A DNA stretch of 32,000 bases from an uncultured Alphaproteobacteria bacterium (GTDB taxonomy: Bacteria; Pseudomonadota; Alphaproteobacteria; Rhizobiales; Xanthobacteraceae): the NCBI GenBank assembly GCA_963801875.1, contig CAWDGT010000004.1:459719-491718 (forward strand), read 5' to 3'. A program made the translations under genes and the position numbers. Shown here one piece after another: positions 765 through 17,390 of this stretch (its first letter is position 1; each line of letters begins with the position of its first letter). The notes below the pieces were generated by a model. The model was not told the DNA's origin. It saw only the letters and a program-made list of their open reading frames with translations, and did no database searches.

Positions 765-860
765 GGCACGAACCGGACCAACCCGGTCGGTCTAGCCATG
801 TCCGTTGTTTGGGGTGAACCGGAAGTGGCACTTCGGGGCCGTCAGGTCAGCTTTTGACCC
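765..860 (+). repeat. REP-like composite intergenic repeat (diverged A module 765-780, B module 820-860)
   Basis: The B module cggaagtggcacttcggggccgtcaggtcagcttttgaccc (820..860) is nearly identical to 5786..5826 and 9944..9983, and to the reverse complement of 15916..15955. Confidence 0.8.
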
Positions 861-890
861 GGAGCAGACATTCGTCGAGCCGAACTCTGG

Positions 891-957
891 CTCCCTCGGC
901 CCCTTCCAAAATGAAGGTTCCCGGCTAAGATTGCCTTGTTCACCCTCGGGGGGCGGT
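891..957 (+). promoter_or_regulatory. conserved leader upstream of GAF kinase 1, with hairpin ccttc-N6-gaagg (902..917)
   Basis: About 80% identical by eye to 7310..7377 upstream of the paralogous kinase. The hairpin stem is conserved and the only difference in the hairpin lies in the loop (caaaat vs cagaat). Confidence 0.35.
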
Positions 958-3900
958 ATGGCACGGCCAGCGAGAAAGGGCGGCAAGAGGAGCGCCGCGA
1001 AAGCGCGCAAGGCGAAGGGCCGCAGCCTCGGCAAGACCAAACGTCCCCTTCGACCCCTCCCGACTAAGCCTCCCACAGCCTCCGCGCGCGGCCGCTCCGA
1101 AACGTCGCACAATGGAAGAGCCAGCAGGCTGGCGCGCGAATTGAGGGAAGCCCTGGCGCAGCAGTCCGCCACATCAGACGTGCTCCAGGTGATCAACAAC
1201 TCCCCGGGTGACCTCGGACCGGTATTTGATGCGATTGTCGACAAGGCGCTGCAAATTTGTGATGCGCGATTCGGTGGATTGTGGATTGTCGATGGCGAAC
1301 TGGCCCACACTGTCGCAGCCAGGAACGTGCCGAAACCATACCGCGACTTCCTTGCAGATCAGCCATTTTCACTTGTCGAAGCCTTTGGTCGAGACATACA
1401 AGATAAGCCCTTCAGTCATGTCGCTGACCTTGCCGCGACACAATCCTATCGTCGGCAACTACCTCTGGCGACAGCCAGTGTTGAGCTCGGTGGCATCCGG
1501 ACTTACCTCGCTATCCCGCTGCGCGACCGTGGAACGTTCACCGGGGTTCTCAGTGTTTATCGTAAGGAGGTGCGACCGTTCAGCGCCAGGCAAATTCTTC
1601 TTTTGCAAGGCTTCGCGGTGCAGGCCGAAATCGCGATGAAGAACGCGCGGTTATTCAACGAAGTTCAGGCAAAGACGCGTGACCTGCAGGAATCGCTCCA
1701 ACAGCAGACCGCGACCGCAGACGTGCTCAAGGTGATCAGTCGGTCGACCTTCGATCTCGATACCGTCATGGATACCCTGGCGCGCTCAGCGCTCGACTTG
1801 TGCGGAGCGAGAACTTCGGCGCTGTCCCTCCGCGAGGGCGACATGCTCATGTTTCGAGGGGTCGCAGCTCTCGTGCCTGTGGACAGGGAGTTTATGAAGA
1901 GCGCCGTGCCGCTCAACGATAACTCACATATGGGACGGTCAGTGTTAACAGGAACTGTCGCCAATATTCCCGACTTCATCAATTCAAAAACAAAATTGCG
2001 AAGATTCCAGGAGGTCAGGGGGTTCAGATCGTTTCTTGCCGTTCCACTTATGCGCGAAGGACAAGGAATCGGGGTATTCACGCTGACACGCGACGAAATC
2101 GGCGGGTTTAGTGAGCGCGAGGTCGAGCTGGTCCAGAGCTTTGCCGACCAGGCGGTGATCGCGATTGAGAACACTCGGTTATTCAACGAGACCCGAGAAG
2201 CGCTCGCCCGACAAACCGCAACATCGGACGTTCTGAAAGTAATCGCGTCCTCACCATCGAACCTTCAACCGGTGTTCGGCGCCATCGCCGAGCGCTCAAA
2301 GGCGCTGATAGGCGGCCACTCGACCACGGTGGTTCGCTATGTCGGCGGTATCGTCGAGCTGGCATCGTTTACACCAGTAAGTCCAGAAGCGGACGCAACG
2401 CTGCTAGCCTTGTTTCCGATGCGACCCGACACCGAACCGCAATTCGCACCAATTCTCCGCGGCGAGATTGCATTGATCGTCGATGCACAATCCGAGCTTC
2501 AGAATACTGCCATGAGAGATTCGGCTCGTGCGCGCGGCTGGCGGAGCCGGCTATTGGTACCGCTCAAAGATGACACCGGCGTCATCGGCTGGATCAGCAT
2601 CACGCGCAAAGAACCCGGTGGTTTTGCCGAAAAAGACGTGGAGCTGTTGCAGACCTTCGCTGATCAGGCGGTGATTGCGATCAAGAACGTGGAGCTGTTC
2701 GAGGAGGTGCAGGCGAAAACGAGGGATCTCGAGGAATCGCTGGAACAGCAGACGGCGACCTCGGAGGTATTGGAGGTCATCAGTTCTTCGCCGGGCGAAC
2801 TGGAACCGGTGTTCAGAAAGATGCTCGAGAATGCGACCCGTGTCTGCGGTGCGAATTTCGGTACGATGAATCTGTGGGATGGCAATCAATTCAACCTTGT
2901 TGCGGATCATAATGTGCCGCTGGAGTTCGCGACCATGCGGCAGGTCACGCCGATCAATCCCCATCCAGACACGCCAATGGCGGCGGTTCTTCAGAGACTC
3001 ACAAACTCGTCCATGTCGCCGATTTAAGGACCAACCCCGCCTATGTGGCGGGCATCCCGAACGTGATGGCGATGGCAGACGTCGCAGGTGCACGCACTAT
3101 CGTCGTCGTCCCGATGATGAAGGAGGACGAGTTCCTCGGCGTAATTTCAATATTCCGTCAGGAAGTGCGCCCGTTCACCGACAAGCAGGTTGCGCTGGTC
3201 GACAATTTCACCAACCAGGCCGTGATCGCCATCGAAAATACGCGGCTGCTGAAGGAGTTGCGCAACCGAACGAACGAGTTGTCGCAATCGCTAGACGATC
3301 TTCGCGCCGCGCAGGATCGCCTAGTACAAACCGAAAAGCTGGCTTCGCTCGGCCAGCTCACCGCAGGCATCGCGCACGAGATCAAGAACCCGCTGAACTT
3401 TGTGAACAACTTTTCCGCTCTTTCGGTCGAGCTGACCGACGAACTCAATGACCTCCTGAAACAAGCTGCGCTTGCGGAAGAACTCCGCAAGGAGGCCGAC
3501 GAATTGACCGGACTGCTGAAGTCCAATCTCGAAAAGGTGGTCCAACACGGCAAGCGTGCCAACTCCATCGTCAAGAACATGCTTTTGCATTCCCGTGAAG
3601 GCTCGGGCGAGCTGCGCGCCGCTGACATTAACGGACTGGTCGACGAAAGCCTCAACCTGGCCTATCACGGCGCGCGCGCCGAGAAGTCTGGCTTCAACAT
3701 CACGCTGCAACGCGAATTTGACGCGAGCGCGGGCTCGGCTGAGCTGTTTCCACAGGAGATCACGCGCGCACTGCTCAACTTGATCTCGAACGGCTTCTAT
3801 GCCGCGACCAAACGCAAGACCGAGAACGGCGAGGCAAGCTTTGAGCCGACCCTGTCAGCCATGACGAGAAATCTTGGCGCTTCAGTTGAGATACGCATCC

Positions 3901-4136
3901 GCGACAACGGCATGGGCATTCCGCCCGAGGTGAAGGAGAAGATGTTCAATCCGTTCTTCACAACCAAGCCCGCGGGCGAAGGAACGGGACTTGGTCTGTC
4001 GATGACCCACGACATCATCGTCAAGCAGCATGGCGGCACTATTCGCGTTGACACTGAGCCCGGCGCATTCACGGAATTTATCGTCACCCTACCGCGAGCA
4101 ACGGGAGCGCAAAACATTCAACGGGGCACAAGATGA
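958..4136 (+). pseudogene. multi-GAF (4x) sensor histidine kinase, split by a frameshift near 2986-2991 (track ORFs 805..3027 and 3045..4136)
   Basis: Four repeats of the QQ(T/S)AT(S/A)(D/E)VL-VI..SP..L.PVF GAF-linker unit are followed by the H-box LASLGQLTAGIAHEIKNPLNFV and an HATPase_c region (DNGMGIP...NPFFTTK..GTGLGLS). The paralogue 7378..9474 reads straight through the break: its IETHRIIQIDDVRTSPGYLAG matches SETHKLVHVADLRTNPAYVAG, which here is in the other frame (2991 onward). The ATG at 958 (MARPARKGGK) is chosen by alignment to MARPSKTGGK of the paralogue. Sequence 805-957 overlaps the repeat and leader. Confidence 0.85.
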
Positions 4137-4522
4137 GCACGTACATCGTCGTTGTTGATGACGAACCAGATGTCGAAAGCATGTTTCGCCAGCAGTTTCG
4201 GCGGGACTTGAAATCGGGGCGTTTCGTTATGGAGTTTGCTTTGTCTGCGCCGGCCGCTCTGGAGCAGGTGAAAGCGATCCCTGACCCTTCGCTGATCTTG
4301 ATCCTGTCCGACATCAACATGCCGGGCATGACCGGTCTTGAGATGCTTCCGGTGGTGAAGGCGGAACGTCCAAATGTTCCCGTGATCATGGTCACCGCCT
4401 ACGGGGACGAAGCGACACAAAGGAGGGCGGCCGAACTTGGTGCAGCCGGTTTGCTTCCCAAGCCGATCGATTTCAGCTTGTTGCGCCGGGAGATCGATCA
4501 GCGGCTGGAGCGGGTTGCCTAG
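4133..4522 (+). CDS. single-domain response regulator (CheY-like receiver)
   Basis: Receiver motifs VVVDDEPD ... LILSDINMPGMTGLE ... VIMVTAYGD ... KP are present. The ATGA start/stop overlap with the upstream kinase suggests translational coupling. It is a paralogue of 9471..9860. Confidence 0.9.
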   Translation: MSTYIVVVDDEPDVESMFRQQFRRDLKSGRFVMEFALSAPAALEQVKAIPDPSLILILSDINMPGMTGLEMLPVVKAERPNVPVIMVTAYGDEATQRRAAELGAAGLLPKPIDFSLLRREIDQRLERVA

Positions 4523-5826: not shown

Positions 5827-7252
5827 AAAGATGGGGTAATCGGCCGGCCCAGCTTGTGGATAGGTGAAGATTTTGGGTGCTGCGCTTCAGGCTGATGGTG
5901 AAACGAGGTCCGTTGTTAGGACGGCCTCAAGCATCAGAAGGAGAAGCGCAGCATGGACCATTTTGCGGGATTGGACGTATCGGTCAAGGAGACCAGCATC
6001 TGCATTGTGGATGACACGGGACGGATCTTCAGGGAAGTGAAGGTAGCGAGCGAGTCTGAAGCCCTTTTGAAGGTTCTTGGGAACCCAGCCTACCGCTTCA
6101 AGCGGATTGGATTGGAAGCCGGACCGCTGTCGCAATGGCTGTTCAGCGCTCTCGCTGAAGCAGGCTTACCAGTGGTCTGTGTTGAGACGCGGCACATGCG
6201 AGCGGTGTTGAAGGCGCAGATCAACAAGACGGACCGCAACGATGCGCGCGGCATCGCCCAGATGATGCGGGTGGGTCTTTACCGTCCGGTGCATGTGAAG
6301 ACGTTACGCAGTCAGAAATTGCGGATGCTGCTGACCCACCGCAAGCTATTGCAGTCGAAGGCCATCGCAATCGAAAATGATCTACGAGGCACCTTGCGTA
6401 ACTTCGGCCTCAAGGTCGGGATGGTTGGCAATGTGAGGTTCGAGGCTCGCATCCAGGAGTTGGTCGAGAACCAGCCCGATCTAGCCGATCTGGTCGAACC
6501 GCTACTCATCGTTCGGCGGACGCTCCGCGAACAGATCGTTATCCTACATCGCCGTTTGTTGGCCATCGTGCGAGACGATGAGGTTTGCCGGCGTTTGATG
6601 ACGATCCCGGGTGTCGGCCCCGTGGTGTCGCTGACCTATCGCGCCACCGTCGATGTACCTGCTCGGTTCCGCAAATCCAAGTCAGTCGGGGCGGTGTTTG
6701 GGCTGACGAGCGCCAGGTATCAATCGGGCGAGGTGGATTGGAGCGGCGAAATATCGCGATGTGGCGATGAGATGATGCGGACCATGCTCTACGAAGCAGC
6801 GCAGAGCATGATGCATTCAAAAAAATGGTCATGGCTTAAGGCGTGGGCCATGCAGATCGCCAGGCGCCGCGGGATGAAGAAGGCGATAGTGGCCCTGGCT
6901 CGCCGGCTGGCCGTGATCATGCACCGCATCTGGGTCGACGGCACCGAGTTCCGGTGGACCCGGGAGCAGGCCGCGGCAGCAGCATGAAACCCGTTCAGGA
7001 TCAAACCCAATAGGAGAAAGCCAGAGTTCCACCCAGCAGTGGAAAGATGTCCCTCGCGGGACGATGGATGAGGTGAGTCCGTATGTCCGCTTGTTCCTGC
7101 CGTTCGATTGACGGCAAGGCCAACTCAAAGATTGTTCCGCCCCGTCCTCGGATCCCATGATGGAAGGGCCCTGGTGCCGATTCCGTAGAGAAGCGCGAGC
7201 CCGTGAGTGACATCGACACCGCATCGGTGGATAGTCTGAAAGTGCTTGACCC
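5827..7252 (+). mobile_element. IS110-family insertion sequence #1 (~1.4 kb; exact ends uncertain by about 15 nt)
   Basis: It carries a DEDD-type transposase gene with a 126-nt 5' and a ~265-nt 3' non-coding region. ttgaccc occurs at both junctions (5820-5826 and 7246-7252). The paralogous locus upstream of kinase 1 (repeat directly followed by leader) serves as an empty-site-like reference. Confidence 0.75.
5953..6987 (+). CDS. IS110-family transposase (DEDD_Tnp_IS110 + Transposase_20)
   Basis: MDHFAGLDVSVKETSICIVDD, IGLEAGP, NKTDRNDARGIAQ, then MTIPGVGPVVSLTY...ARYQSGE...GDEMMRTMLYEAA. These are the classic DEDD and C-terminal motifs of the family. Confidence 0.95.
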   Translation: MDHFAGLDVSVKETSICIVDDTGRIFREVKVASESEALLKVLGNPAYRFKRIGLEAGPLSQWLFSALAEAGLPVVCVETRHMRAVLKAQINKTDRNDARGIAQMMRVGLYRPVHVKTLRSQKLRMLLTHRKLLQSKAIAIENDLRGTLRNFGLKVGMVGNVRFEARIQELVENQPDLADLVEPLLIVRRTLREQIVILHRRLLAIVRDDEVCRRLMTIPGVGPVVSLTYRATVDVPARFRKSKSVGAVFGLTSARYQSGEVDWSGEISRCGDEMMRTMLYEAAQSMMHSKKWSWLKAWAMQIARRRGMKKAIVALARRLAVIMHRIWVDGTEFRWTREQAAAAA

Positions 7253-7309
7253 CAACCGGCCGATTAGAGAAGCGGACATCACCGGGGCAGTCGACATGCA
7301 CGATTCTTG

Positions 7310-7377
7310 CTCGTTCGCCCCCTTCCAGAATGAAGGTTTGGCCCGATAAGATGGCTTGTTGACCCTTGGGGGCGGAA
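7310..7377 (+). promoter_or_regulatory. conserved leader upstream of GAF kinase 2, with hairpin ccttc-N6-gaagg (7321..7336)
   Basis: Paralogous to 891..957. Confidence 0.35.
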
Positions 7378-9474
7378 ATGGCGCGGCCATCAAAAACGGG
7401 CGGCAAGACGAGCGGGGCGAAGGCCCGCAACGCAAAGCCAGCAAAGGGCCGCAAGACCACCAAGACCAAGCGCCGCATTGCACCAACGCCCATCCGAGTT
7501 AAGCGTCATTCGGTCTCCGGTCCGAGCAAAGACCTGAAGGACGCCCGCGCGCAGCAGACGGCGACGGCTGACATCCTGAAGGTCATCGCCAGCTCGCCGT
7601 CCGACGTGCAGCCGGTGTTCGAGGCCATTGCGGCCAGCGCAAACCGCCTTCTTGGCGGCTTCTCGACTTCGGTGTCCCGCTTCATCGATGGCATGGTGCA
7701 TCTTGCCGCCTTCACGCCGGTCAGCCCGACGGCTGATGCTGCTTTGAGGTCTACCTTCCCTGCACCGACGGCCGTCCTTCCAGCCTTCGTGCTCGCAGCG
7801 CGGGGAGAGCCAGCGCAGATCGCAGATACCGAAGCGCTCGCAGATGAGAGATTACTGGAGATTTCGCGTGCGCGCGGCTATCGCAGCGTGCTGTTTGTGC
7901 CTCTGATGAATGGGGGGCTGCCGATCGGTATGATCTCCGTCGCGCGCGTTGCGCCAGGTACATTTGCTCCCCACCACGTTCAACTACTCCGGACCTTTGC
8001 CGATCAGGCCGTGATCGCCATCGAAAACACGCGCCTGTTCAACGAGGTGCAGGAGCGCACCCGCGATCTGACCGAATCACTGGAACAGCAGACGGCTACC
8101 TCGGAGGTGCTCGAAGTCATCAGCGCTTCGACGGGTGAGCTGACGCCCGTCTTCCAGAAGATGCTGGAGAACGCGACCCGCGTTTGCGGCGCACAGTTCG
8201 GCGTGATGAACCTGTGGGACGGAAGCAAGTTCGACATGGTTGCGGATTACAACGTCCCGCCCGCCTTTCTGGCGCTCCGAAAAAGCATGCTGGTCACTCC
8301 GGACGCCACGCCTTCGTTCGAAAAGATCATCGAAACCCATCGCATCATTCAGATCGACGACGTGCGAACCAGCCCTGGATATCTCGCCGGCGCTCCACTC
8401 GCCGTCGGGATCGCTGACCTGGCGGCGGCCCGAACAATGATCGTCGTGCCGATGCTGAAGGAAGACGAACTTCTCGGCTTCATCATGATCTACCGTCAGG
8501 AAGTGAAGCCGTTCACCGAGAAGCAGGTCGCGTTGCTCGAGAACTTCACCAAGCAGGCCGTGATCGCTATTGAAAATGTTCGGCTGCTCAACGAGCTGCG
8601 CCAGCGCACGGACGACCTGACCGAATCACTCCACGATCTGCGCACCGCGCAGGATCGCCTGATCCAAACCGAGAAGCTCGCGTCGCTCGGCCAACTCACC
8701 GCGGGCATCGCGCACGAGATCAAGAACCCGCTCAACTTTGTCAATAACTTCTCGGCGCTGTCGGCGGAATTGACCGACGAGCTGAATGACGTGCTCAAAG
8801 CGGTCGTGCTCGACGACAACGTCCGGGGAGAAGTCGACGAATTGACGGGGATGCTGAAGGACAACCTAGAAAAGGTGGTCCTGCACGGCAAGCGCGCCGA
8901 CTCCATCGTCAAGAACATGCTGCTGCATTCGCGTGAAGGCTCCAGAGAACACCGGCCTGCGGATATCAATTCGCTTCTCGATGAGAGCCTCAATCTCGCC
9001 TATCACGGTGCGCGCGCAGAAAAAGGCGAGTTCAATATTACCCTGCAGCGCGACTTCGATGCGGACGCTGGTATAATCGAACTATTTCCGCAGGAGATCA
9101 CCCGGGCATTTCTCAATCTGATCGCGAACGGCGTCTATGCTGCGACTAGACGTAAGACCGAGGTTAAAGAGCATGATTTTGAGCCAACCCTCCGAGCCAC
9201 CACGAAGAACCTCGGAAGTACCGTGGAAATTCGCATCCGCGACAACGGTACCGGCATCCCGGTGGAAGTGCGAGAAAAGATGTTCAACCCGTTCTTCACG
9301 ACGAAGCCAGCCGGGGAAGGAACCGGCCTTGGGCTCTCGATGACGCACGACATCATCGTAAAGCAACACGGCGGCAGAATTGATGTCGCGACCGAACCTG
9401 GGCAGTTCACAGAATTTACTATCGTCCTGCCGAGGAAGAGCAATTTGTCAGGCGTGGATCGAGGTAAGACGTGA
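7378..9474 (+). CDS. GAF (2x) sensor histidine kinase with a Lys/Arg-rich N-terminal tail
   Basis: MARPSKTGGKTSGAKARNAKPAKGRKTTKTKRR tail, two QQTAT..L.VI GAF units, H-box AGIAHEIKNPLNFV, and HATPase_c (DNGTGIP, NPFFTTKPAGEGTGLGLS). The ATG at 7378 is preferred over the track start at 7366 by alignment with kinase 1. Confidence 0.9.
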   Translation: MARPSKTGGKTSGAKARNAKPAKGRKTTKTKRRIAPTPIRVKRHSVSGPSKDLKDARAQQTATADILKVIASSPSDVQPVFEAIAASANRLLGGFSTSVSRFIDGMVHLAAFTPVSPTADAALRSTFPAPTAVLPAFVLAARGEPAQIADTEALADERLLEISRARGYRSVLFVPLMNGGLPIGMISVARVAPGTFAPHHVQLLRTFADQAVIAIENTRLFNEVQERTRDLTESLEQQTATSEVLEVISASTGELTPVFQKMLENATRVCGAQFGVMNLWDGSKFDMVADYNVPPAFLALRKSMLVTPDATPSFEKIIETHRIIQIDDVRTSPGYLAGAPLAVGIADLAAARTMIVVPMLKEDELLGFIMIYRQEVKPFTEKQVALLENFTKQAVIAIENVRLLNELRQRTDDLTESLHDLRTAQDRLIQTEKLASLGQLTAGIAHEIKNPLNFVNNFSALSAELTDELNDVLKAVVLDDNVRGEVDELTGMLKDNLEKVVLHGKRADSIVKNMLLHSREGSREHRPADINSLLDESLNLAYHGARAEKGEFNITLQRDFDADAGIIELFPQEITRAFLNLIANGVYAATRRKTEVKEHDFEPTLRATTKNLGSTVEIRIRDNGTGIPVEVREKMFNPFFTTKPAGEGTGLGLSMTHDIIVKQHGGRIDVATEPGQFTEFTIVLPRKSNLSGVDRGKT

Positions 9475-9860
9475 GCATTCTGGTTCTTGTGGTAGACGAC
9501 GAGCCTGACGTCGAAGCGCTGTTCCGCCAGCAATTCCGGCGCGACCTGCGTGCGCAGCGCTTCGTCATGAACTTCGCCAGTTCAGCCGCGGATGCTCTAT
9601 CGCGCATCGCAGACCCCATCGAGGAGACCCTGATATTGATCCTCTCGGACATCAATATGCCCGGCATGACCGGGCTTGAGATGCTGCCAAAAGTCAGGGA
9701 AATGCGACCCGACGTTCCCATCATCATGATCACCGCCTACGGCGATCCCGAAACCAGGCGGAAGGCGATAGAAGGCGGCGCGACCGGGCTGCTGACTAAG
9801 CCCATCGACTTCACATTGCTTCGCGAAGAGATCGACGCGCGGCTGAGCCAGGCCGGTTGA
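9471..9860 (+). CDS. single-domain response regulator (CheY-like receiver)
   Basis: The GTG start overlaps the kinase stop (GTGA). VVDDEPD...ILSDINMPGMTGLE...IIMITAYGD...KP. It is a paralogue of 4133..4522. Confidence 0.9.
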   Translation: MSILVLVVDDEPDVEALFRQQFRRDLRAQRFVMNFASSAADALSRIADPIEETLILILSDINMPGMTGLEMLPKVREMRPDVPIIMITAYGDPETRRKAIEGGATGLLTKPIDFTLLREEIDARLSQAG

Positions 9861-11160: not shown

Positions 11161-11433
11161 CGTCGCAGAGACTGCGGCATCCGTATGCTTCGACTCGCGC
11201 GCCGCCCGGTAGCACGTGCGCTTTCGAAAACAAAGATGGAGACCACCTTGACGCGACTTAGTAGGATTGTCTTGCACGAGAACATCATGGTCGCCGCGAC
11301 GGTCGCGATCGGCGCTTTTGTGTTTCGACCGAGACAATTGATCGGTTACGATCGGCTGCGATCTCAACCGGCGTGACGCGCCGTTCGAGATCCCAACGGA
11401 AATTTGGAAACTCAACTCAGGAGGAACGCCACA

Positions 11434-11838
11434 ATGACCGACAGCCCCTTGCGCGCCAAAGGTCGCGCGATGCGCCGCAATCTCATGGGCGCGGCCTACG
11501 CCGACAAGCTAGATCAGCAGCTCTACACCGATCCGATCATGGAGAAATTTGCGGCGCTGACGCAGGAGACGGTGTTCGGCACGCTGTGGACGAGGCCCGG
11601 GCTCGACCTCAAGACCAGGACGTTGATCTGCGTCGTCTCCGACACCGCAACAGGGCGGACCCCAGAGCTGAAACTGCATATCCGCTTTGCGTGTAACCAC
11701 GGCTGGACCGAGGACGAGCTCGTCGAGGCGATTCTGCACCTGCTCGGCTATGTCGGCGCGCCTCTTGTGCGCGAGGCGCTGCTAGTGGCGAAGGAGACCT
11801 TTGCGGAGATGCGTGCCGAGAATCCGGTCACGTCATAA
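11434..11838 (+). CDS. carboxymuconolactone decarboxylase (CMD, PF02627) family protein
   Basis: FGTLWTRPGLDLKTRTLICVVSDTATGRTPELKLHIRFACNHGWTEDELVEAILHLLGYVGAP is the CMD-fold signature. The ATG at 11434 follows AGGAGG (11418-11423). Confidence 0.85.
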   Translation: MTDSPLRAKGRAMRRNLMGAAYADKLDQQLYTDPIMEKFAALTQETVFGTLWTRPGLDLKTRTLICVVSDTATGRTPELKLHIRFACNHGWTEDELVEAILHLLGYVGAPLVREALLVAKETFAEMRAENPVTS

Positions 11839-12150
11839 CAGCGAGCTTGCAGTCCTGCACCACTTCGGGCGAGAAATGCTCAGCTAGAGTTTATTTGCAG
11901 TTTGACAAAAAGTAGACGACCGATCGCCCTCGCGCGCGCCCGGTTCTGACCCGGAAATGGCCGAGGCTGGAGGACATTGTAGGCATCTGTCGGCGCAAGT
12001 TAGCCGGCAAATGATCAAGATTTGATCGTCGCCTTGCCGTAAGGTGATTGAAAAGCTTGGGCAGTGAAAGTCCGTTACTGGCGGCACTTCTCGGACATGA
12101 ATTAGCCGTAACCACTGACTTGATGATGGCGGACTCGATTGACGAGGCAA

Positions 12151-12176
12151 CCGGGCGACGATCGCTCATCGCCCGG
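12151..12176 (-). terminator. candidate stem-loop just downstream of the 12186..12596 gene
   Basis: ccgggcga-N10-tcgcccgg is an 8-bp GC-rich stem starting 10 nt after the stop. There is no clear U-tract, so this is weak as an intrinsic terminator. Confidence 0.3.
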
Positions 12177-12185
12177 CCCTGACGA

Positions 12186-12596
12186 TCAAGCAGCCTTGCG
12201 AGCCTTGCCGATCGATCCGGACTTGGCAGCCTGACTCCCGGCACGGACTGCCGCGATCAGGGTGTCGATCACTGTCGGGAGTTTGTCCTTGGACGGGACC
12301 ACGATGCCGGCCTTGCCCTTCTCGAACTCGATGGGCTTGGCCCCGAACTTGACGGACATGACGACCTGGCCGGACGGGTCTGTCTTCCACCAGGGCCGGA
12401 CGGCCTGTTGTTTGGTGGTGGCCTGCCTTTCCCCGTTGACCTTGGTCCATCGCTGGATGGTCCGGACGTGGTTGGGGTCTTTCAGGAGCAGCTTCTGCTC
12501 CTCAAGCTTGGTGATGAACTTGGCCCGGCGTTGCTGGACCGGATCGTTCCCGGTCTTGGGAAGGGCGGTGAACGAGAGTGACTTGAGGACTGGCAT
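12186..12596 (-). CDS. hypothetical basic protein, DUF6641-like (family assignment from memory)
   Basis: Clean 136-aa ORF with good codon bias. PVQQRRAKFITKLEEQKLLL...RPWWKTD..G.VVMSVKFGAKPIEFEKGKAGIVV...LPTVIDTLIAAVRAG resembles a small protein family I recall from mobile islands. I cannot verify this without a search. Confidence 0.6.
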   Translation of the reverse strand: MPVLKSLSFTALPKTGNDPVQQRRAKFITKLEEQKLLLKDPNHVRTIQRWTKVNGERQATTKQQAVRPWWKTDPSGQVVMSVKFGAKPIEFEKGKAGIVVPSKDKLPTVIDTLIAAVRAGSQAAKSGSIGKARKAA

Positions 12597-12680
12597 GTAG
12601 GTTCTCCGTTGTTGGATGAAACCTCGCCGATCCTAATCACGTGCATGATACTGTACATAGCCCAGCCCAGGATTGTCGGG

Positions 12681-13592
12681 TTACCGATCCAATTCCTCGA
12701 GCAGGGTTCGGCCATATTCGTCAATTGTGACGTAGTCGTTTAGTAGCTGGCTATGAAATTCTACTTGGGGTAACTCCTCGTAAATTGAGTGCATCATTCC
12801 GGGCACGAATTGGCATAGCGTCAATTGTTTCGTCTTAACCTTCTCGTACTCCTCGGGACTGCTCCGCGAAGGCTCCTCCCATTTGGCCTTCTCTAGCTCC
12901 TCGTATTTCGCGACGTTCGCCTTTGGGACCACGTAGGGCGGAATGTAGAGGGGAATGCGATGCGCAAGTGAGTCCCGGAAGTCGATGAGGTTACCAAACC
13001 ACTTTTGCTTCTCGTCCAAATAATCTCGGAACTCCTTGGTGAGTTTGTTACGAATTTTTTTCTTGCCGAGTCCCACTTTTTTGGGATCGAGATCAGTACC
13101 GTCGCTGTTTTTGATATCTTTCTCCAGCACCCAAATCCAAGCGATATTATCCAGACATCCAAACGCATTCATCGTGAATGCTTGTATCGCTATTGTCGCG
13201 TCGATGACGTCATCACGCTCTGGAATCTCCTCCCTCTCCGGCGGTAAAAGATCGTAGACCAAATCTACTGTCCTTACGAGCGTTCCAAGCCGTCGGCAAA
13301 AGCCATGCTTGGCAAATTCTGCGCCGCGATTGGTTTTGTACGACCGCAAAAAAAATTTCTCCCGAAGATCTGCGTGCTGAGCATGCATCGCGTCCTGACC
13401 TACATGCAACTCCGCAAGGCGATTGTCTGAAAAATACCGCGTCATGCTATTCGGTCCTTCCATCGCTGGCAGAACGATTCGCGCCCCCTCGTTGAAGTAA
13501 GGCAACCGAAGCCATTTGCCTGATTCTACCAAATGAATTGATGATAGAATTACCCTTCTATCATCAGTTGATCCAAGCCATTGGGCTTCCAA
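12681..13592 (-). CDS. hypothetical protein with an R-x4-H (HEPN / Abi_2-like) motif; AT-rich foreign gene
   Basis: The long ORF lies in a visibly AT-rich segment. The motif FRDSLAHRIPLY is R-D-x-x-A-H-R. The start is uncertain: the TTG at 13592 is the track start, and ATGs at 13463 and 13445 are alternatives (the latter preceded by GAAGGA). Confidence 0.7.
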   Translation of the reverse strand: MEAQWLGSTDDRRVILSSIHLVESGKWLRLPYFNEGARIVLPAMEGPNSMTRYFSDNRLAELHVGQDAMHAQHADLREKFFLRSYKTNRGAEFAKHGFCRRLGTLVRTVDLVYDLLPPEREEIPERDDVIDATIAIQAFTMNAFGCLDNIAWIWVLEKDIKNSDGTDLDPKKVGLGKKKIRNKLTKEFRDYLDEKQKWFGNLIDFRDSLAHRIPLYIPPYVVPKANVAKYEELEKAKWEEPSRSSPEEYEKVKTKQLTLCQFVPGMMHSIYEELPQVEFHSQLLNDYVTIDEYGRTLLEELDR

Positions 13593-13682
13593 CTAATATT
13601 TCCCGTCGGCTATGTACGACCACTCCTGACTGATTACAGTCCAGCGTCCTGCAACTCGTAAATAACGGGATTGGAGGGCCAG

Positions 13683-14267
13683 ATGGCTTTAGCAAAGCAA
13701 GCGAAGACGTTGAGCAAGGGGCAGGTCGATGCCGTCTTGGGCTACTTGGCCAAGACCCGCTGGCCATCCAGGAACCGGGTCATCTTCCTGCTTTCGGTCA
13801 AGGCAGGCCTCCGGGCCAAGGAGATAGCAAGCCTGACCTGGAGGATGGTCACCGATGGGAGGGGCCAGATCGGCCAAGCCATCCTCCTGGAGAACAAGGC
13901 GAGCAAGGGTCAGTCCGGCCGGGTCATTCCGATGAACGAAGAACTCAGGACCGCGCTGGCCGAGTACTTCAAAACGGTCTACCCGCCGAACAGCACATTC
14001 TTGATCGAGAGCGAGAGGTCGAGGGGGATGTCAGCCCAAGCCGTCGTCAACCTGTTCTGGCGATGGTACCAGCACGTCGGCTTCGACGGGTGTTCGAGTC
14101 ACTCCGGAAGGCGCACCTTCATCACCAATACCGCCAGGAAGATCTCGACGGTGGGAGGATCGTTGCGGGACGTCCAGATGCTTGCCGGACACACGAACCT
14201 TCGAACCACGCAGCGCTACATCGAGGCCAATCCGGACGCTCAGGTCCGGATCGTCGAGTTAGTCTAG
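13683..14267 (+). CDS. short (194 aa) catalytic-domain-only tyrosine recombinase
   Basis: AGLRAKEI (Arg I), HSGRRTFITN (H-x-x-R) and LAGHTNLRTTQRYIE (His and the Tyr nucleophile) are present. The ATG at 13683 is 4 nt after GGAGGG. The track start is the TTG at 13671. No N-terminal arm-binding or core-binding extension is present. Confidence 0.9.
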   Translation: MALAKQAKTLSKGQVDAVLGYLAKTRWPSRNRVIFLLSVKAGLRAKEIASLTWRMVTDGRGQIGQAILLENKASKGQSGRVIPMNEELRTALAEYFKTVYPPNSTFLIESERSRGMSAQAVVNLFWRWYQHVGFDGCSSHSGRRTFITNTARKISTVGGSLRDVQMLAGHTNLRTTQRYIEANPDAQVRIVELV

Positions 14268-14947
14268 TGCATAGCTCCCCCGCGATGGTCGCAGTCCAAT
14301 GGGACGCTCGACTATTCGTAAGTATCCCAACATCTCAGTATCGACGCGACATGACAGCGTCCCGTAACCTCCTAGGTGTGAGGCACTGCGGAAACCCCGG
14401 TGGCCTGAGACACCGGTCGGAGCATCCGGGTCACCCTGACCTGATGCGTTCCTGGCAATGAACGACCAAAGCGGGCACGGTCGCTAAACCAAGCCCGACG
14501 AGAGACGGGAAAGCTTTAAACCGTCGAAGGGAGGCACGATCGTCGGATCGGTCGTGTCGCCAACTTTGCGCAGATAAGCAGAGGGGAAACGGGGCTCACC
14601 GCACTGCCGGTCCCGACCACCATCCGGTGGTTCCTCTGATCCGATGTTTCCGAAGCCGTTATACGCACGATTTCCGGATCGCTTCGCCTGCAAAGGGCGA
14701 AGTGTATCACTCAACCGTTTCCGCACACGCTGGCAGCCGAGCTGGTAGACTGCCGACCGGAAACCGGTCCGAGTTGGAAAAGCCTGAGGTCGCCCGAAGG
14801 GCGCTCACCCCAACGAAGTGAGGGTGAGTGGGTAAGGATCCTGATCGGTAAACTAGTCGGCTTTGTCCGACCAAATATGAACCCCGATACAAACCGCCGC
14901 TGTCAAGACTACTGGCAGTAGCGCCGGAGCTTTACCAACGCGCGCCG

Positions 14948-15139
14948 TCAGTGCGTTCGCGTCCCTGGCGGGTGAACGACTAGTTTTTCCTCGGCAAAAA
15001 ACTGGAGCGCGCCATATCCTTCCGTGTCAACAGCGTATCTAAGTTTGCCGTCAACTGTTGGGAACACTGCGATGACCGTGCCGCCCTCATGGTCGTTGGC
15101 TGCATTATCGACCTGCTCGCCAACTGCAAACTTCGACAT
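14948..15139 (-). CDS. small hypothetical protein (63 aa, probably an SH3-like beta-barrel)
   Basis: MSKFAVGEQVDNAANDHEGGTVIAVFPTVDGKLRYAVDTEGYGALQFFAEEKL. GAGGG lies 4-5 nt upstream of the ATG. The composition looks coding. Confidence 0.5.
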   Translation of the reverse strand: MSKFAVGEQVDNAANDHEGGTVIAVFPTVDGKLRYAVDTEGYGALQFFAEEKLVVHPPGTRTH

Positions 15140-15915
15140 CGCGCGCCCTCTGGAATTATCGAAACTTTAACGATTATCTTCACCAATTAGTCAACGCTTC
15201 GTTAATGACGGGTCCGGGCCGTGACAGTTCGGAGCATATTTGTGGTGCGATGTTCGATCATGAGATGCCGCTGTGGCATCCTGCACGTGGTAGCCGCATC
15301 CCGGCTCTGCAAGTTCGCGCCCCGGCTTCGACGAAACGAAAGTGGCCGCCAACCGAGCAACCTTACTTGTCTCGTTCACCTAGCGGGTTGCTGGTCGAGC
15401 GGTTGATAAAATGAAGTCTAGTGCAAGCCTGACAGACCACGGGTTTATGAGTTGTGCCCGTTGGATCGTCAGGCGCGTCTTCGAGCAAATGCTGCACGTT
15501 TAACCGGCCATTTCATCGTTAGGACAGCAACGCTGGCTTGATTAGCACCGTCGCCGGTGACACATGATAGATCATCGGGGATACGTTGGCCCCGACACGC
15601 TGGCAACGCATCGACTGCCTCATTCAATGATGGCTGTGCGTCCGGTGGCTAGCAGGCTCAGACTACGTTTCGGGCACCGCTCGGCGCAGCAAACCTCTAG
15701 GCAAACGCAACGCAACGGCATGAGCCGTCGAGGGAGACCTTGGCGGCTTTTGCGTGTGGACATGCAGCCAACGATAATCGGGATGAAGGTGTAGCCTAAC
15801 GCTAACCGGCCGACGTCAGCTATCCCCTCCGATAGCGACCAAATCCCGCAGGACAGCGAACGAAAAGGTGCCGGGACAGCGTCCAACACGATGATGGGAT
15901 CCGATGTTGGTTCCT

Positions 15916-16010
15916 GGGTAAAAGCGGACCTGACGGCCCCGAAATCCAATTTCCGCTTTACCCCCGAAAGCAGACTCATGTCGGACATCTCGCCATGTCC
16001 GAAAAGTGCC
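15916..16010 (-). repeat. REP-like composite repeat, full-length copy in reverse orientation
   Basis: The reverse complement reads ggcacttttcggacatggcgagatgtccgacatgagtctgctttcgggggtaaagcggaaattggatttcggggccgtcaggtccgcttttaccc, collinear with 5731..5826. Confidence 0.9.
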
Positions 16011-16011
16011 A

Positions 16012-17390
16012 TGTGTGGACGGCTCCGGATTGGCAAGGACTTTTTTCACGTCGCAGGCTTGGTCGGTGCAGCCATGTGTTCGGCCTTTAAGCGCGGTTCA
16101 CATGACCGCTGGCCATAATGCCCTCCGCGGATCAGGTCCCGGTCAAAACCGCGCATTCGATAGCAATGCGATGGCACAAGTGGGTTGTCCTGATCGCCGG
16201 ATCGACCGGCTCTGCATTACGTGCTGTTCGCCCTCCCAACCTTCACATCACGCCGGTTATCCGGCGCGATCTCGTTCACCGCGCTAGCGCGACAGGATTT
16301 CTATATCGCTCACCTTTGGCCATCATGGCCCAGGCCATCCGCGCAATCTTGTTGGCAAGCGCGATCGCGGCGACCTTTGTCGGGCGTCGACCTAGCAACG
16401 CCGTGAGCCAAGGCCGATGCCCGGTGCCATGGATCTTGGCATAGCGGATGACGGCGAGTGCTCCGGCCACGAACAGGCTCCGCAGATAGCGATCGCCCTG
16501 TTTACTGATGCTGCCGAGCCGCTCCTTGCCCCCACTTGAGTGCTGTTTGGGAACGAGCCCAATCCAGGCGGAGAAGTTACGTCCGGACCGGAAGGTTCTG
16601 GGATCGGCAACACTCGCAACCAGCGCAGTCGCCAGCATCGGGCCGACCCCAGGAATGTAATGAAGGCGCTTACTCGTCTGGTCGGACCGATGCCAGACCA
16701 GGATCATCCGATCGAACTCCAAAATCTGCTCCTTGAGAGCGAGCAGCTGGGTACCGAGCGCGGCAAGGCAGGCACGGGCAACCTCCGGCACCCGCTTGTC
16801 CTTCGGGTCGGCAACAATACGCAGCAATTCCGTGACCCCTTTGCGCCCGACCGGTGCGACAATGCCGAACTCGGCGAGATGCGCTCGGATCGAATTAATC
16901 ACCGCGGTCTGCTGACGGATGAATAGATGGCGTGTGCGATGAAGCATCAGACAACTCTGCTGCTCTGGCGTCTTGGTTGGCACGAACCGCATGTTGGCTC
17001 TGGTGACCGCTTCGCAAATCGCTTCTGCGTCGGCCATGTCGTTCTTCTGCCGTTTGACATAGGGCTTTACGTAAGCCGGCGGCATCAATCGCACGGTATG
17101 GCCAAGTGTCTGCAACTCGCGCGACCAATGGTGAGACGAGGCGCAAGCCTCGATGCCGACCAAGCAGGGTGGCAGCTTCTCAAAGAATGTCAGCACGTGG
17201 CGACGTTTCAACTGGCGGCGGATGACCACCTGGCCGGCGGCATCAACGCCGTGCACCTGGAACACCGACTTGGCGATGTCGAGACCGATTGTCGTGATCG
17301 TCTGCATGGACCTGCTCCTCTAAATCGTGGGAGCCTCAACAGCGCCCACATCCATGGCACTCATGTGCCGGTGGAGGAGCCGTCCACAGC
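16012..17390 (-). mobile_element. IS110-family insertion sequence #2 (~1.38 kb) with 13-bp terminal/subterminal inverted repeats
   Basis: tgtggacggctcc at 16014..16026 and its exact reverse complement ggagccgtccaca at 17376..17388 bracket the transposase gene. In gene orientation the 5' non-coding region is ~80 nt and the 3' non-coding region ~260 nt. Confidence 0.8.
16276..17307 (-). CDS. IS110-family transposase (a different lineage from 5953..6987)
   Basis: IGLDIAKSVFQVHGVD, LVGIEACASSHHW, KRQKNDMADAEAICEA, then YIPGVGPMLATALVASV...PKQHSSGGKERLGSISKQGDRYLRSLFV. Confidence 0.95.
   Translation of the reverse strand: MQTITTIGLDIAKSVFQVHGVDAAGQVVIRRQLKRRHVLTFFEKLPPCLVGIEACASSHHWSRELQTLGHTVRLMPPAYVKPYVKRQKNDMADAEAICEAVTRANMRFVPTKTPEQQSCLMLHRTRHLFIRQQTAVINSIRAHLAEFGIVAPVGRKGVTELLRIVADPKDKRVPEVARACLAALGTQLLALKEQILEFDRMILVWHRSDQTSKRLHYIPGVGPMLATALVASVADPRTFRSGRNFSAWIGLVPKQHSSGGKERLGSISKQGDRYLRSLFVAGALAVIRYAKIHGTGHRPWLTALLGRRPTKVAAIALANKIARMAWAMMAKGERYRNPVALAR

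Follow-up and report, generated by a model that had tools for sequence, protein, structure and literature searches.

The question raised by this locus is whether a compositionally foreign gene, lodged between a DUF6641 gene and the gene of a small tyrosine recombinase, forms a functional module with these two neighbours or merely occupies the place between them. The locus extends from position 12,186 to position 15,139 of a stretch of 32,000 nucleotides (nt), hereafter the window, taken from contig CAWDGT010000004.1 of an uncultured Alphaproteobacteria bacterium (Xanthobacteraceae, assembly GCA_963801875.1, positions 459,719 to 491,718). An initial annotation, made from the letters of the sequence, had proposed a small mobile or recombinase-switched module carrying an RNase-type effector. 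Comparison with related loci indicated that the foreign gene sits alone, as cargo, in a sharply bounded slot between the DUF6641 gene and a unit composed of a palindrome and the recombinase gene. We give about an even chance to the more complete reading, in which this cargo is a divergent HEPN-type effector from a large unannotated family, carried as a single gene in the slot of a DUF6641/palindrome/recombinase frame. The features on which the argument relies are given below in window coordinates; labels of the type L057 designate comparison loci.

12151..12176, minus strand: terminator-like hairpin CCGGGCGA...TCGCCCGG, just past the DUF6641 stop codon, at the left end of the conserved DUF6641 block
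12186..12596, minus strand: DUF6641 gene, basic protein of 136 amino acids (aa) with Pfam and PHROG matches, left part of the conserved frame
12650..12662: left slot junction, ending ...ACTGTACAT with the last conserved base at 12658, and left inverted-repeat copy GTACATAGCC (12653-12662)
12659..13537: variable slot of 879 base pairs (bp), 50% guanine plus cytosine (G+C), one cargo gene and short flanks
12681..13445, minus strand: cargo gene, 254-aa all-alpha HEPN-like protein with the motif R157-D-S-L-A-H162-R163
13538..13567 (extended 13533-13572): imperfect 30-bp palindrome TTGATGATAGAA-ttaccc-TTCTATCATCAG, candidate recombinase core site, left end of the recombinase block
13568..13682, plus strand: conserved recombinase leader, holding the right inverted-repeat copy GGCTATGTAC (13608-13617)
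13683..14267, plus strand: tyrosine recombinase gene, 194 aa, catalytic domain only (PF00589)
14314..14844, plus strand: conserved non-coding element, candidate structured RNA, downstream of and co-oriented with the recombinase gene
14948..15139, minus strand: small open reading frame (ORF) of 63 aa, with relatives near the recombinase gene elsewhere

The ORFs found in this region were 12186..12596(-) with 136 aa, 12681..13592(-) with 303 aa from a TTG at 13592, and 13671..14267(+) with 198 aa, the latter giving 194 aa if read from the ATG at 13683. The 303-aa product described initially is too long, as more than 750 homologues measure about 254 aa and span only 84% of this ORF. The public gene call for exactly the same sequence is also 254 aa long, the ATG at 13445 is preceded by GGAAGGA 9 nt upstream, and the extra 49 codons overlie the conserved palindrome. 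We have therefore taken 12681..13445(-) as the true gene. The 49-codon extension was also considered as a possible remnant of a 198-aa partner protein found upstream of relatives (see below), but this was dropped, as the extension corresponds to the conserved palindrome and leader region. With this start, the real distance from the cargo gene to the recombinase ATG is 237 nt, instead of the gap of about 90 nt first reported, and the 84-nt gap to the DUF6641 gene was confirmed.

Base composition clearly sets this gene apart. Its G+C content is 49.3% (58% at third codon positions), versus 62.3% in the DUF6641 gene, 60.2% in the recombinase gene and 59.9% in the whole window, and the 400-nt bins at 12801-13600 are the lowest two of the 80 in the window (0.492, the next lowest being 0.520). 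The gene is indeed foreign in composition even to its two flanking genes, as stated initially, and has the lowest G+C content in the window, but the contrast of 40-45% versus 60-68% put forward from counts of single lines was overstated (49.3% versus 60-62%), individual 60-nt lines inside the gene ranging from 42% to 60%.

The limits of the slot were remarkably constant between loci on both sides. In blastn comparisons, similarity around the recombinase gene begins abruptly at 13536-13539, that is, at the left arm of the palindrome, and extends to the recombinase stop at 14266, and the sequence further left is unrelated from one locus to another; the leader (13568..13682) is conserved together with the recombinase gene in about 30 loci. 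On the opposite side, the DUF6641 block with its terminator covers 12140-12658. The arrangement with a DUF6641 gene on the left, transcribed divergently from the recombinase gene, recurs in L073, L075, L082, L087, L108, L140 and L143. In the base-level alignment of L073, L075, L082, L087 and L108, the block has an identical end, at ...ACTGTACAT (12658), with unrelated sequences beyond, and the blastn block likewise ends at 12658 in L140 and L143. A hairpin equivalent to the terminator-like one is present in L073, L082 and L087, similarity stopping beyond it, and blastn blocks begin at 12140-12165.

What lies between these two blocks differs from one locus to the next. The slot of the window holds exactly one gene, encoding the 254-aa protein. 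In L075, L140 and L143, it is occupied by a shared insert of 530-564 bp, unrelated to the window cargo and encoding a 63-aa cysteine-rich protein, while L082 has 1.07 kilobases (kb) encoding a 337-aa protein without family match, and L073 about 5.5 kb in two parts, split by a second copy of the palindrome. In L087 the slot is empty: the DUF6641 and recombinase genes are 123 nt apart and no such palindrome is found. Since the content of the slot differs between conserved blocks, we consider the DUF6641 and recombinase genes as a resident frame and the HEPN-like gene as its cargo. The comparison also covered relatives of the 254-aa gene, in 45 loci from species-representative genomes and in metagenome, viral and plasmid loci. 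No DUF6641 gene flanked the family gene, within 6 kb, whether in the 45 genome loci or in the further ones inspected, nor did any relative of the window recombinase, only Xer-type genes by priA being found, 3 kb off. The trio is thus real as a neighbourhood, with a gene placed in a variable slot by a recombinase gene, but it is not the co-inherited functional unit first envisaged, as DUF6641 and this recombinase are never neighbours of the 254-aa family in the 45 genome loci and the further metagenome loci.

Slots of this type call to mind the defence hotspots of prophages and their satellites, such as those of P2 and P4, where the cargo varies and the core genes around it are conserved. As in these P2/P4-type hotspots, conserved flanking genes enclose a sharply bounded and locus-specific cargo, enriched in conflict-type genes, which near the recombinase gene includes TerY-P-like VWA/PP2C/kinase genes, SLFN-AlbA_2, caspase, trypsin-like and HEPN-like genes. 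Unlike them, the present frame measures only about 2 kb, is not visibly embedded in a phage, and has a recombinase-type palindrome as one of its boundaries. In L057, two palindromes bracket four genes, encoding SLFN-AlbA_2, kinase and PP2C proteins and an ORF of 192-298 aa (a VWA protein in the near-identical L058), and the DNA left of the palindrome elsewhere carries caspase-YARHG, M15 peptidase and trypsin-like genes. A VWA and PP2C (plus kinase) set, resembling the TerY-P triad, was observed to the left of the recombinase gene in L057 (627-5894), L058 and L070, and the same VWA and PP2C set to its right, in mirrored orientation, in L073 (9470-10918); its presence on either side implies that the recombinase unit and its cargo have been rearranged with respect to each other.

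Some further observations concern L143. A CMD-family gene on the left side of this locus (L143:2295-2894) is 96.5% identical to window positions 11245-11850, but inverted and 4 kb further off, whereas the DUF6641 and recombinase blocks of this locus are only 79-87% identical to those of the window; the frame is thus more diverged than its surroundings. In the same locus, an IS5-type element (8077-8918) lies between the palindrome and the recombinase leader.

The origin of this turnover brings the palindrome and the recombinase to the fore. The palindrome at 13538-13567 has 12-bp arms and a 6-bp spacer, and occurs only once in the window, where chance alone would give 0 matches. In most relatives whose protein is at least about 65% identical, the recombinase ATG is preceded, at a distance of 109-116 nt, by a palindrome with arms of 12-13 nt and a spacer of about 6 nt. 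The two arms have changed in a compensatory manner (TTATAGAA/TTCTATAA, GATACAAG/CTTGTATC and TGATGGAA/TTCCATCA), and more distant recombinase relatives have palindromes with quite different arm sequences. Second copies bracket the cargo in L057 (586 and 5856) and in L073 (4198 and 6842), and in L098 two sites flank the recombinase gene itself; extra copies are limited to these three loci. This core-site anatomy, the co-evolution with the recombinase, the position at the boundary and the copies on the far side together support site-specific recombination as the source of the turnover. In the mechanism that we propose, the palindrome would serve as the recombinase's core site, and site-specific recombination there, or right next to it, would load the slot and replace its content; the DUF6641 and recombinase genes would be the resident frame, and not functional partners of the cargo product, whose role would be that of an effector in abortive infection or in a toxin-like defence. 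Several observations weigh against the recombination part of this proposal: no second palindrome or half-site was found in the 32-kb window, spacers differ where two copies exist, cargo genes point either way, and some of the DNA left of the palindrome looks like ordinary chromosome (FMN dehydrogenase, nonribosomal peptide synthetase-like). The palindrome and a 10-bp inverted repeat described below could also be operators of divergent promoters.

The recombinase itself matched PF00589 (E 5.6e-22, residues 13-187) and phrog_216 (E 1.4e-39), and its catalytic R, K, HxxR, H and Y residues are readable in the sequence. It has 7,995 relatives at E<=1e-10; among the 120 matches listed, identity to the recombinase was 83-100% and nearly all were of 194-204 aa, with one of 227 aa. 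Only one distant relative was found in viral contigs. With PF00589 as its only domain and 194 aa, it is indeed a catalytic-domain-only enzyme of the size of FimB/FimE invertases (about 195-200 aa), as had been noticed at first. Membership in that family was not borne out: the FimB/FimE models NF007370 and NF007371 gave 16.9 and 12.9 bits, versus cutoffs of 221 and 222, Xer models scored better (50-58 bits) while still far below cutoff, and in PDB its relatives are catalytic domains of Xer proteins, the alignment covering residues 96-264 of XerA.

The initial annotation had also suggested a recombinase-driven switch. In a model of this kind, the recombinase would invert the cargo segment between the 10-bp inverted repeats, or at the palindrome, and thereby toggle a toxic effector in the manner of FimB/FimE. 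Besides the size and domain content of the enzyme, this is in line with the short inverted repeats near the gene, since a perfect 10-bp inverted repeat, GTACATAGCC (12653-12662) and GGCTATGTAC (13608-13617), flanks both cargo and palindrome, and a 6-10 bp inverted repeat recurs in every locus with DUF6641 and recombinase genes except the most divergent one, L108. The mirrored placement of the VWA-PP2C cargo in L073, relative to L057, L058 and L070, and the two sites flanking the recombinase gene in L098 also speak for inversion. However, in addition to the model scores and the Xer-type relatives, no orientation variants of any cargo were seen among the loci compared, the common 63-aa cargo points the same way in each of its three loci, and the slot varies between loci in content, not in orientation. 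Each half of the inverted repeat lies 60-70 nt upstream of one of the divergent genes, and in L087 (5742-5775), which has no cargo, the halves stand side by side, 14 nt apart, and form one palindrome in the shared divergent promoter region, which fits a shared operator. The 10-bp repeat may be a shared operator split by the cargo, or else an ancestral insertion site. As no orientation variants were found, inversion switching remains a speculation of the first reading, and we consider it improbable. Another inverted repeat, of 21 nt (12582-12602 and 13398-13418), was judged near chance and lies inside coding sequence. An integron offers a different comparison: here too, a recombinase gene is divergent from an adjacent recombination-type site, variable and often defence-like genes lie beside this site, and a further copy of the site follows the cargo block in two loci. 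By contrast with integrons, the recombinase has 194 aa and no IntI-specific insertion (20.2 bits with the integron integrase model TIGR02249, cutoff 265), the sites are simple 12+6+12 palindromes and not attC hairpins, the cargo points in either direction, and the site is mostly single.

A two-gene toxin-antitoxin or defence pair, formed by the DUF6641 protein and the 254-aa protein, has to be weighed as well. Both genes are adjacent, on the same strand and 84 nt apart, and the DUF6641 protein is small and basic. Its co-directional gene had been called DUF6641-like, which a Pfam match above cutoff confirmed (PF20346, E 3.2e-07, 30.9 bits versus a cutoff of 27), in addition to phrog_31551 (E 5e-06); a literature search found no paper mentioning DUF6641. 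A constant partnership is difficult to reconcile with the lack of any DUF6641 homologue near the family gene in the loci mentioned above, with the occurrence of DUF6641 beside the recombinase with quite different cargo or none, with a conserved block that ends sharply 62 nt upstream of the DUF6641 start codon, and with a G+C content of 62% versus 49% in the cargo gene. We regard such a pair as very improbable indeed, and retain the frame-and-cargo reading in what follows.

As for the cargo protein, it belongs to a large, horizontally mobile and unannotated all-alpha family. Nothing was found for it in Pfam, NCBIfam, PADLOC, PHROGs or PDB sequences, and the initial statement that no named family could be assigned holds for all the libraries scanned. 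A word-indexed search gave 759 matches, and grouping at 50% identity gave the family at least 1,744 clusters (E<=1e-3), 534 of which reach E<=1e-30. Wherever the sources name its members, they are called "hypothetical protein". The nearest relatives of the window protein come from Bradyrhizobium and other Hyphomicrobiales. Conservation peaks in two segments, NAFGCLDNxAW and F-R-[H/D]-[A/S]-L-A-H-R-I-P-L-Y-I-P-P, the second containing the motif FRDSLAHRIPLY (residues 156-167), in which the R-x4-H pattern pointed out initially is indeed present and conserved among homologues. In a census of 150 diverse relatives, R157 was found in 149, H162 in 145 and R163 in 138, the residue following the arginine (position 158) being H in 83, D in 59 and N in 4; R157 and H162 are invariant in an alignment of 34 sequences. 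This corresponds to the pattern of HEPN RNases, R-phi-x3-H, where phi is N, D or H. The AlphaFold2 model is all-alpha, with a mean predicted local distance difference test (pLDDT) score of 92.2 and a predicted template modelling (pTM) score of 0.86. In this model, the stretch before the motif is helical, as had been anticipated, R157 to A161 forming the last turn of the helix 147-161, which is followed by an extended proline-rich stretch.

Profile comparisons point in the same direction as the motif, from a distance. When 34 members were compared to Pfam at a permissive E-value (all 11 matched families listed), HEPN_Apea was matched by 3 and HEPN_Swt1 by 2. Among 150 members (top 25 of 71 families), HEPN_Apea was matched by 15 (best E 3e-4), HEPN_Swt1 by 6 (best 2e-3) and HEPN_Cthe2314 by 1 (2e-4), that is, weak matches to HEPN models in about 15% of the relatives, all below the gathering score; the commonest unrelated family among the weak matches concerned 3 of the 150. 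The HEPN matches inspected run up to the motif and end there, at profile position 96 of 136. The family thus resembles HEPN_Apea (PF18739), HEPN_Swt1 (PF18731) and HEPN_Cthe2314 (PF18730) by its all-alpha character, by the conserved R-[N/D/H]-x3-H on a helix, by this weak and recurrent similarity at the motif, and by its defence-related or mobile contexts, alone or with nuclease partners. It differs from them in reaching no threshold and no structural match, in its larger size, and in possessing the H-R-I-P-L-Y-I-P-P extension and a conserved C-terminal part (P215, H219, S220 and H231). The affinity to Abi_2 (AbiD/AbiF) suggested initially found no support. Abi_2 likewise comprises single-gene, HEPN-motif proteins on mobile DNA, and the motif can be read as R-D-x-x-A-H, but the residue after the histidine is Arg in 138 of the 150 relatives, and not His, the window protein had no Abi_2 match even at E<=1, Abi_2 was not among the families listed in either member scan, and no PADLOC Abi model matched.

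A number of results stand against a HEPN assignment. No HEPN model reached its gathering score, for the window protein or in the scans of 34 and 150 members, the window protein itself had no HEPN-clan Pfam match, and family consensus sequences gave Pfam matches as weak as those of single members. The HEPN fold expected by the first reading was not recovered by Foldseek from the pLDDT 92 model: the neighbours of the full model in PDB, mostly long helices of BAR type, were not significant (best E 0.05), nor was any in BFVD, and the core fragment 70-215 (pLDDT 88) had nothing better than E 3 in PDB. A profile search of PDB sequences returned only 1ylm (E 0.16), which we take to be a DUF86/HEPN-type protein, and a second, more diverse profile returned nothing; hhalign against an AbiV-HEPN alignment built here gave a probability of 0.3%. 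No PADLOC model matched the 254-aa protein, and in PADLOC-DB 2.0 no match was found for the 254-aa or 303-aa product, the DUF6641 protein, the recombinase or the 63-aa ORF, so that no component of a known defence system was detected at the window locus.

These results leave room for another explanation, in which the protein is not a HEPN RNase at all, and has instead a new all-alpha fold of other biochemistry, carried by mobile elements, the Arg/His motif being HEPN-like by convergence only; it might for example act as a regulator, inhibit a system of the host or of a rival, or be another kind of hydrolase. A confident model without significant structural neighbour in PDB or BFVD, HEPN profile matches that all fall below threshold and the negative hhalign comparison would be expected in that case. 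So would the conservation of other polar residues (N93, D99, N100, E108, H219, S220 and H231) and of the proline-rich H-R-I-P-L-Y-I-P-P segment directly past the motif, which to our knowledge have not been described for HEPN proteins. Convergence accounts less well for the fact that the three HEPN-clan models are the only recurring weak-match families and align on the motif region, that the residue after the arginine (H, D or N) is distributed as in HEPN, and that the family accompanies nucleases and defence genes. This alternative appears to us unlikely, while deserving serious attention. Since the HEPN matches are below threshold and Foldseek recovered no HEPN fold, "HEPN-like" is here a probable qualification, not a proven one; the chances that the 254-aa protein is a divergent HEPN-type RNase seem a little better than even.

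The genomic neighbourhoods of its relatives are informative in this respect. The 45 genome loci belong mostly to Alphaproteobacteria (Bradyrhizobium, Rhodopseudomonas, Ensifer and others), with one each from Planctomycetaceae, Acidobacteriaceae and Arenimonas. In 39 of 43 loci, the family gene is lower in G+C than its flanks, by 8 points on average. In about 10 distinct loci, a 198-aa protein is encoded directly upstream, its stop abutting the start of the family gene (L007:5403-5999, L004:7400-7999, L013, L025, L027, L028, L031, L032 and L051); this partner, absent from the window, has no Pfam or PADLOC match and reads, by eye, GDVVA...ISAECKGG (D...ExK), resembling the motif of PD-(D/E)xK nucleases. 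In L004, a 252-aa protein (6642-7400) is encoded upstream of the 198-aa and 254-aa pair, which makes a three-gene operon; it has no family match and carries NARNLMHPG, an Arg/His motif with different spacing. Elsewhere, the effector would work alone or with a nuclease-type partner.

Other neighbours of the family gene include a 366-aa HNH_5 protein downstream in three or four loci, an AbiV-type HEPN protein upstream in one locus (detected by PADLOC), a PDDEXK_4 protein and a 1,336-aa AAA_16 protein, once each, and DUF4238 in L010 and on plasmid pRmeGR4a. In L047 (2574-6852), the family gene comes directly after an IetS protease (PADLOC, E 6e-59), itself preceded by a 390-aa ORF, and in L146 (3517-7765) it follows an AAA and S8 pair, in the same position as after IetS in L047; judging from these arrangements, it could be an accessory gene of some Iet systems. 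The island of L146 also holds BilA-D (Bil system) and a pair formed by a helix-turn-helix protein and an M78 peptidase, beside a prophage terminase. In four loci (L036:4447-8036, L040, L147 and L148), namely two genome contigs and two IMG/VR viral contigs, the gene lies between a lambda-type portal gene and an S49 prohead protease gene, a moron-like position in the head module, and one locus is beside a relaxase in an integrative and conjugative element. Nine plasmids carry the family gene, seven of which are conjugative, and the phage collection contained no relative of the protein. Mobile contexts were thus found as predicted, in prophages, an integrative and conjugative element, conjugative plasmids and defence islands, but the expected link to this recombinase was not. 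By association, these neighbourhoods fit a horizontally moving conflict gene.

The DNA that follows the recombinase gene had been described as almost devoid of coding sequence. This holds in that 14268..16275 contains no convincing long ORF, but about 530 nt of it make up a conserved, putatively structured element. A search with nhmmer found the element (14314-14844) in 12 other loci; as L093 and L094 are duplicates, these amount to 11 distinct loci, one of which, L056, is the window's own contig. Copies were located as follows.

L084: 831-1366
L086: 752-1281
L057: 8990-9520
L080: 10578-11085
L093: 3060-3568
L099: 2975-3295

The element is downstream of and co-oriented with the recombinase gene in 10 loci, and to the left of it in L060. 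It directly follows the recombinase gene in the window, L084, L086, L093/L094 and L099, and elsewhere is separated from it by 1.4-6.5 kb, pointing to a second variable slot right behind the recombinase stop. It is not coding, since six-frame matches keep switching frame and indels are not multiples of three. Folding of eight copies with RNAalifold gave 18 helices and 92 pairs, with 93.9% of cells paired. Among these, 22 pairs had changed on both sides, versus 8.2±2.1 in column shuffles (0/500) and at most 8 with slid partners, and the plus strand folds better than the minus strand (-96.6 versus -77.8 kcal/mol). No Rfam 15 match was found, even at E<=1, and a literature search for RNAs linked to a tyrosine recombinase yielded no paper. 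When compared with the palindrome region in five loci, the element was not consistently complementary to it, and thus nothing points to a guide role. We consider the element as a candidate new structured RNA, which, coming from eight related sequences, is a lead and not a demonstration.

Taken with the palindrome, this element opens a wider perspective. The recombinase, the 12+6+12 palindrome and the RNA-like element of about 530 nt might together constitute an undescribed platform that captures and exchanges defence-type cassettes in soil Alphaproteobacteria, a reading that we hold to be quite unlikely. Such a platform could share its geometry, though not its ancestry, with integrons; the RNA might assist or regulate the exchange, and the HEPN-like gene could be one captured cassette. 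The unit is abundant in soil metagenomes, with more than 400 loci in one scan, and it marks a place of gene-content turnover. Should the turnover prove to be driven by so small a recombinase, whether or not the RNA takes part, a new way of exchanging cassettes would be described, and perhaps a compact tool for recombination. As to the cargo, if the 254-aa family were indeed a family of HEPN RNases, it would add to the effectors of bacterial immunity a large unannotated branch, frequent among rhizobia and soil Alphaproteobacteria and counting at least 1,700 clusters at 50% identity, with testable partners in the 198-aa D...ExK protein, the HNH protein and IetAS.

Further to the right, the 63-aa ORF at 14948-15139(-) had no family match in the Pfam, PADLOC, NCBIfam and PHROG scans. 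By eye, it resembles 58-aa ORFs at L057:6921-7097 and L058:4076-4252, with a common ...RYAV.[DN].EG... motif; small ORFs of 58-63 aa recur near the recombinase gene, in varying positions and orientations.

The window, taken in its entirety, is a variable part of the chromosome, encoding GAF sensor kinases and response regulators, two IS110-family transposases, an adenylate cyclase-TPR protein and a large serine recombinase; no tRNA or tmRNA was found in it, nor any Rfam match at gathering scores. It is rich in insertion sequence elements and rearranged. Two similar sets of GAF sensor kinase and response regulator genes occupy 805-4522 and 7366-9860, separated by an ABC-type binding-protein gene and an IS110-family transposase gene (5953-6987), and the second IS110-family transposase gene (16276-17307) lies 2 kb to the right of the recombinase gene.

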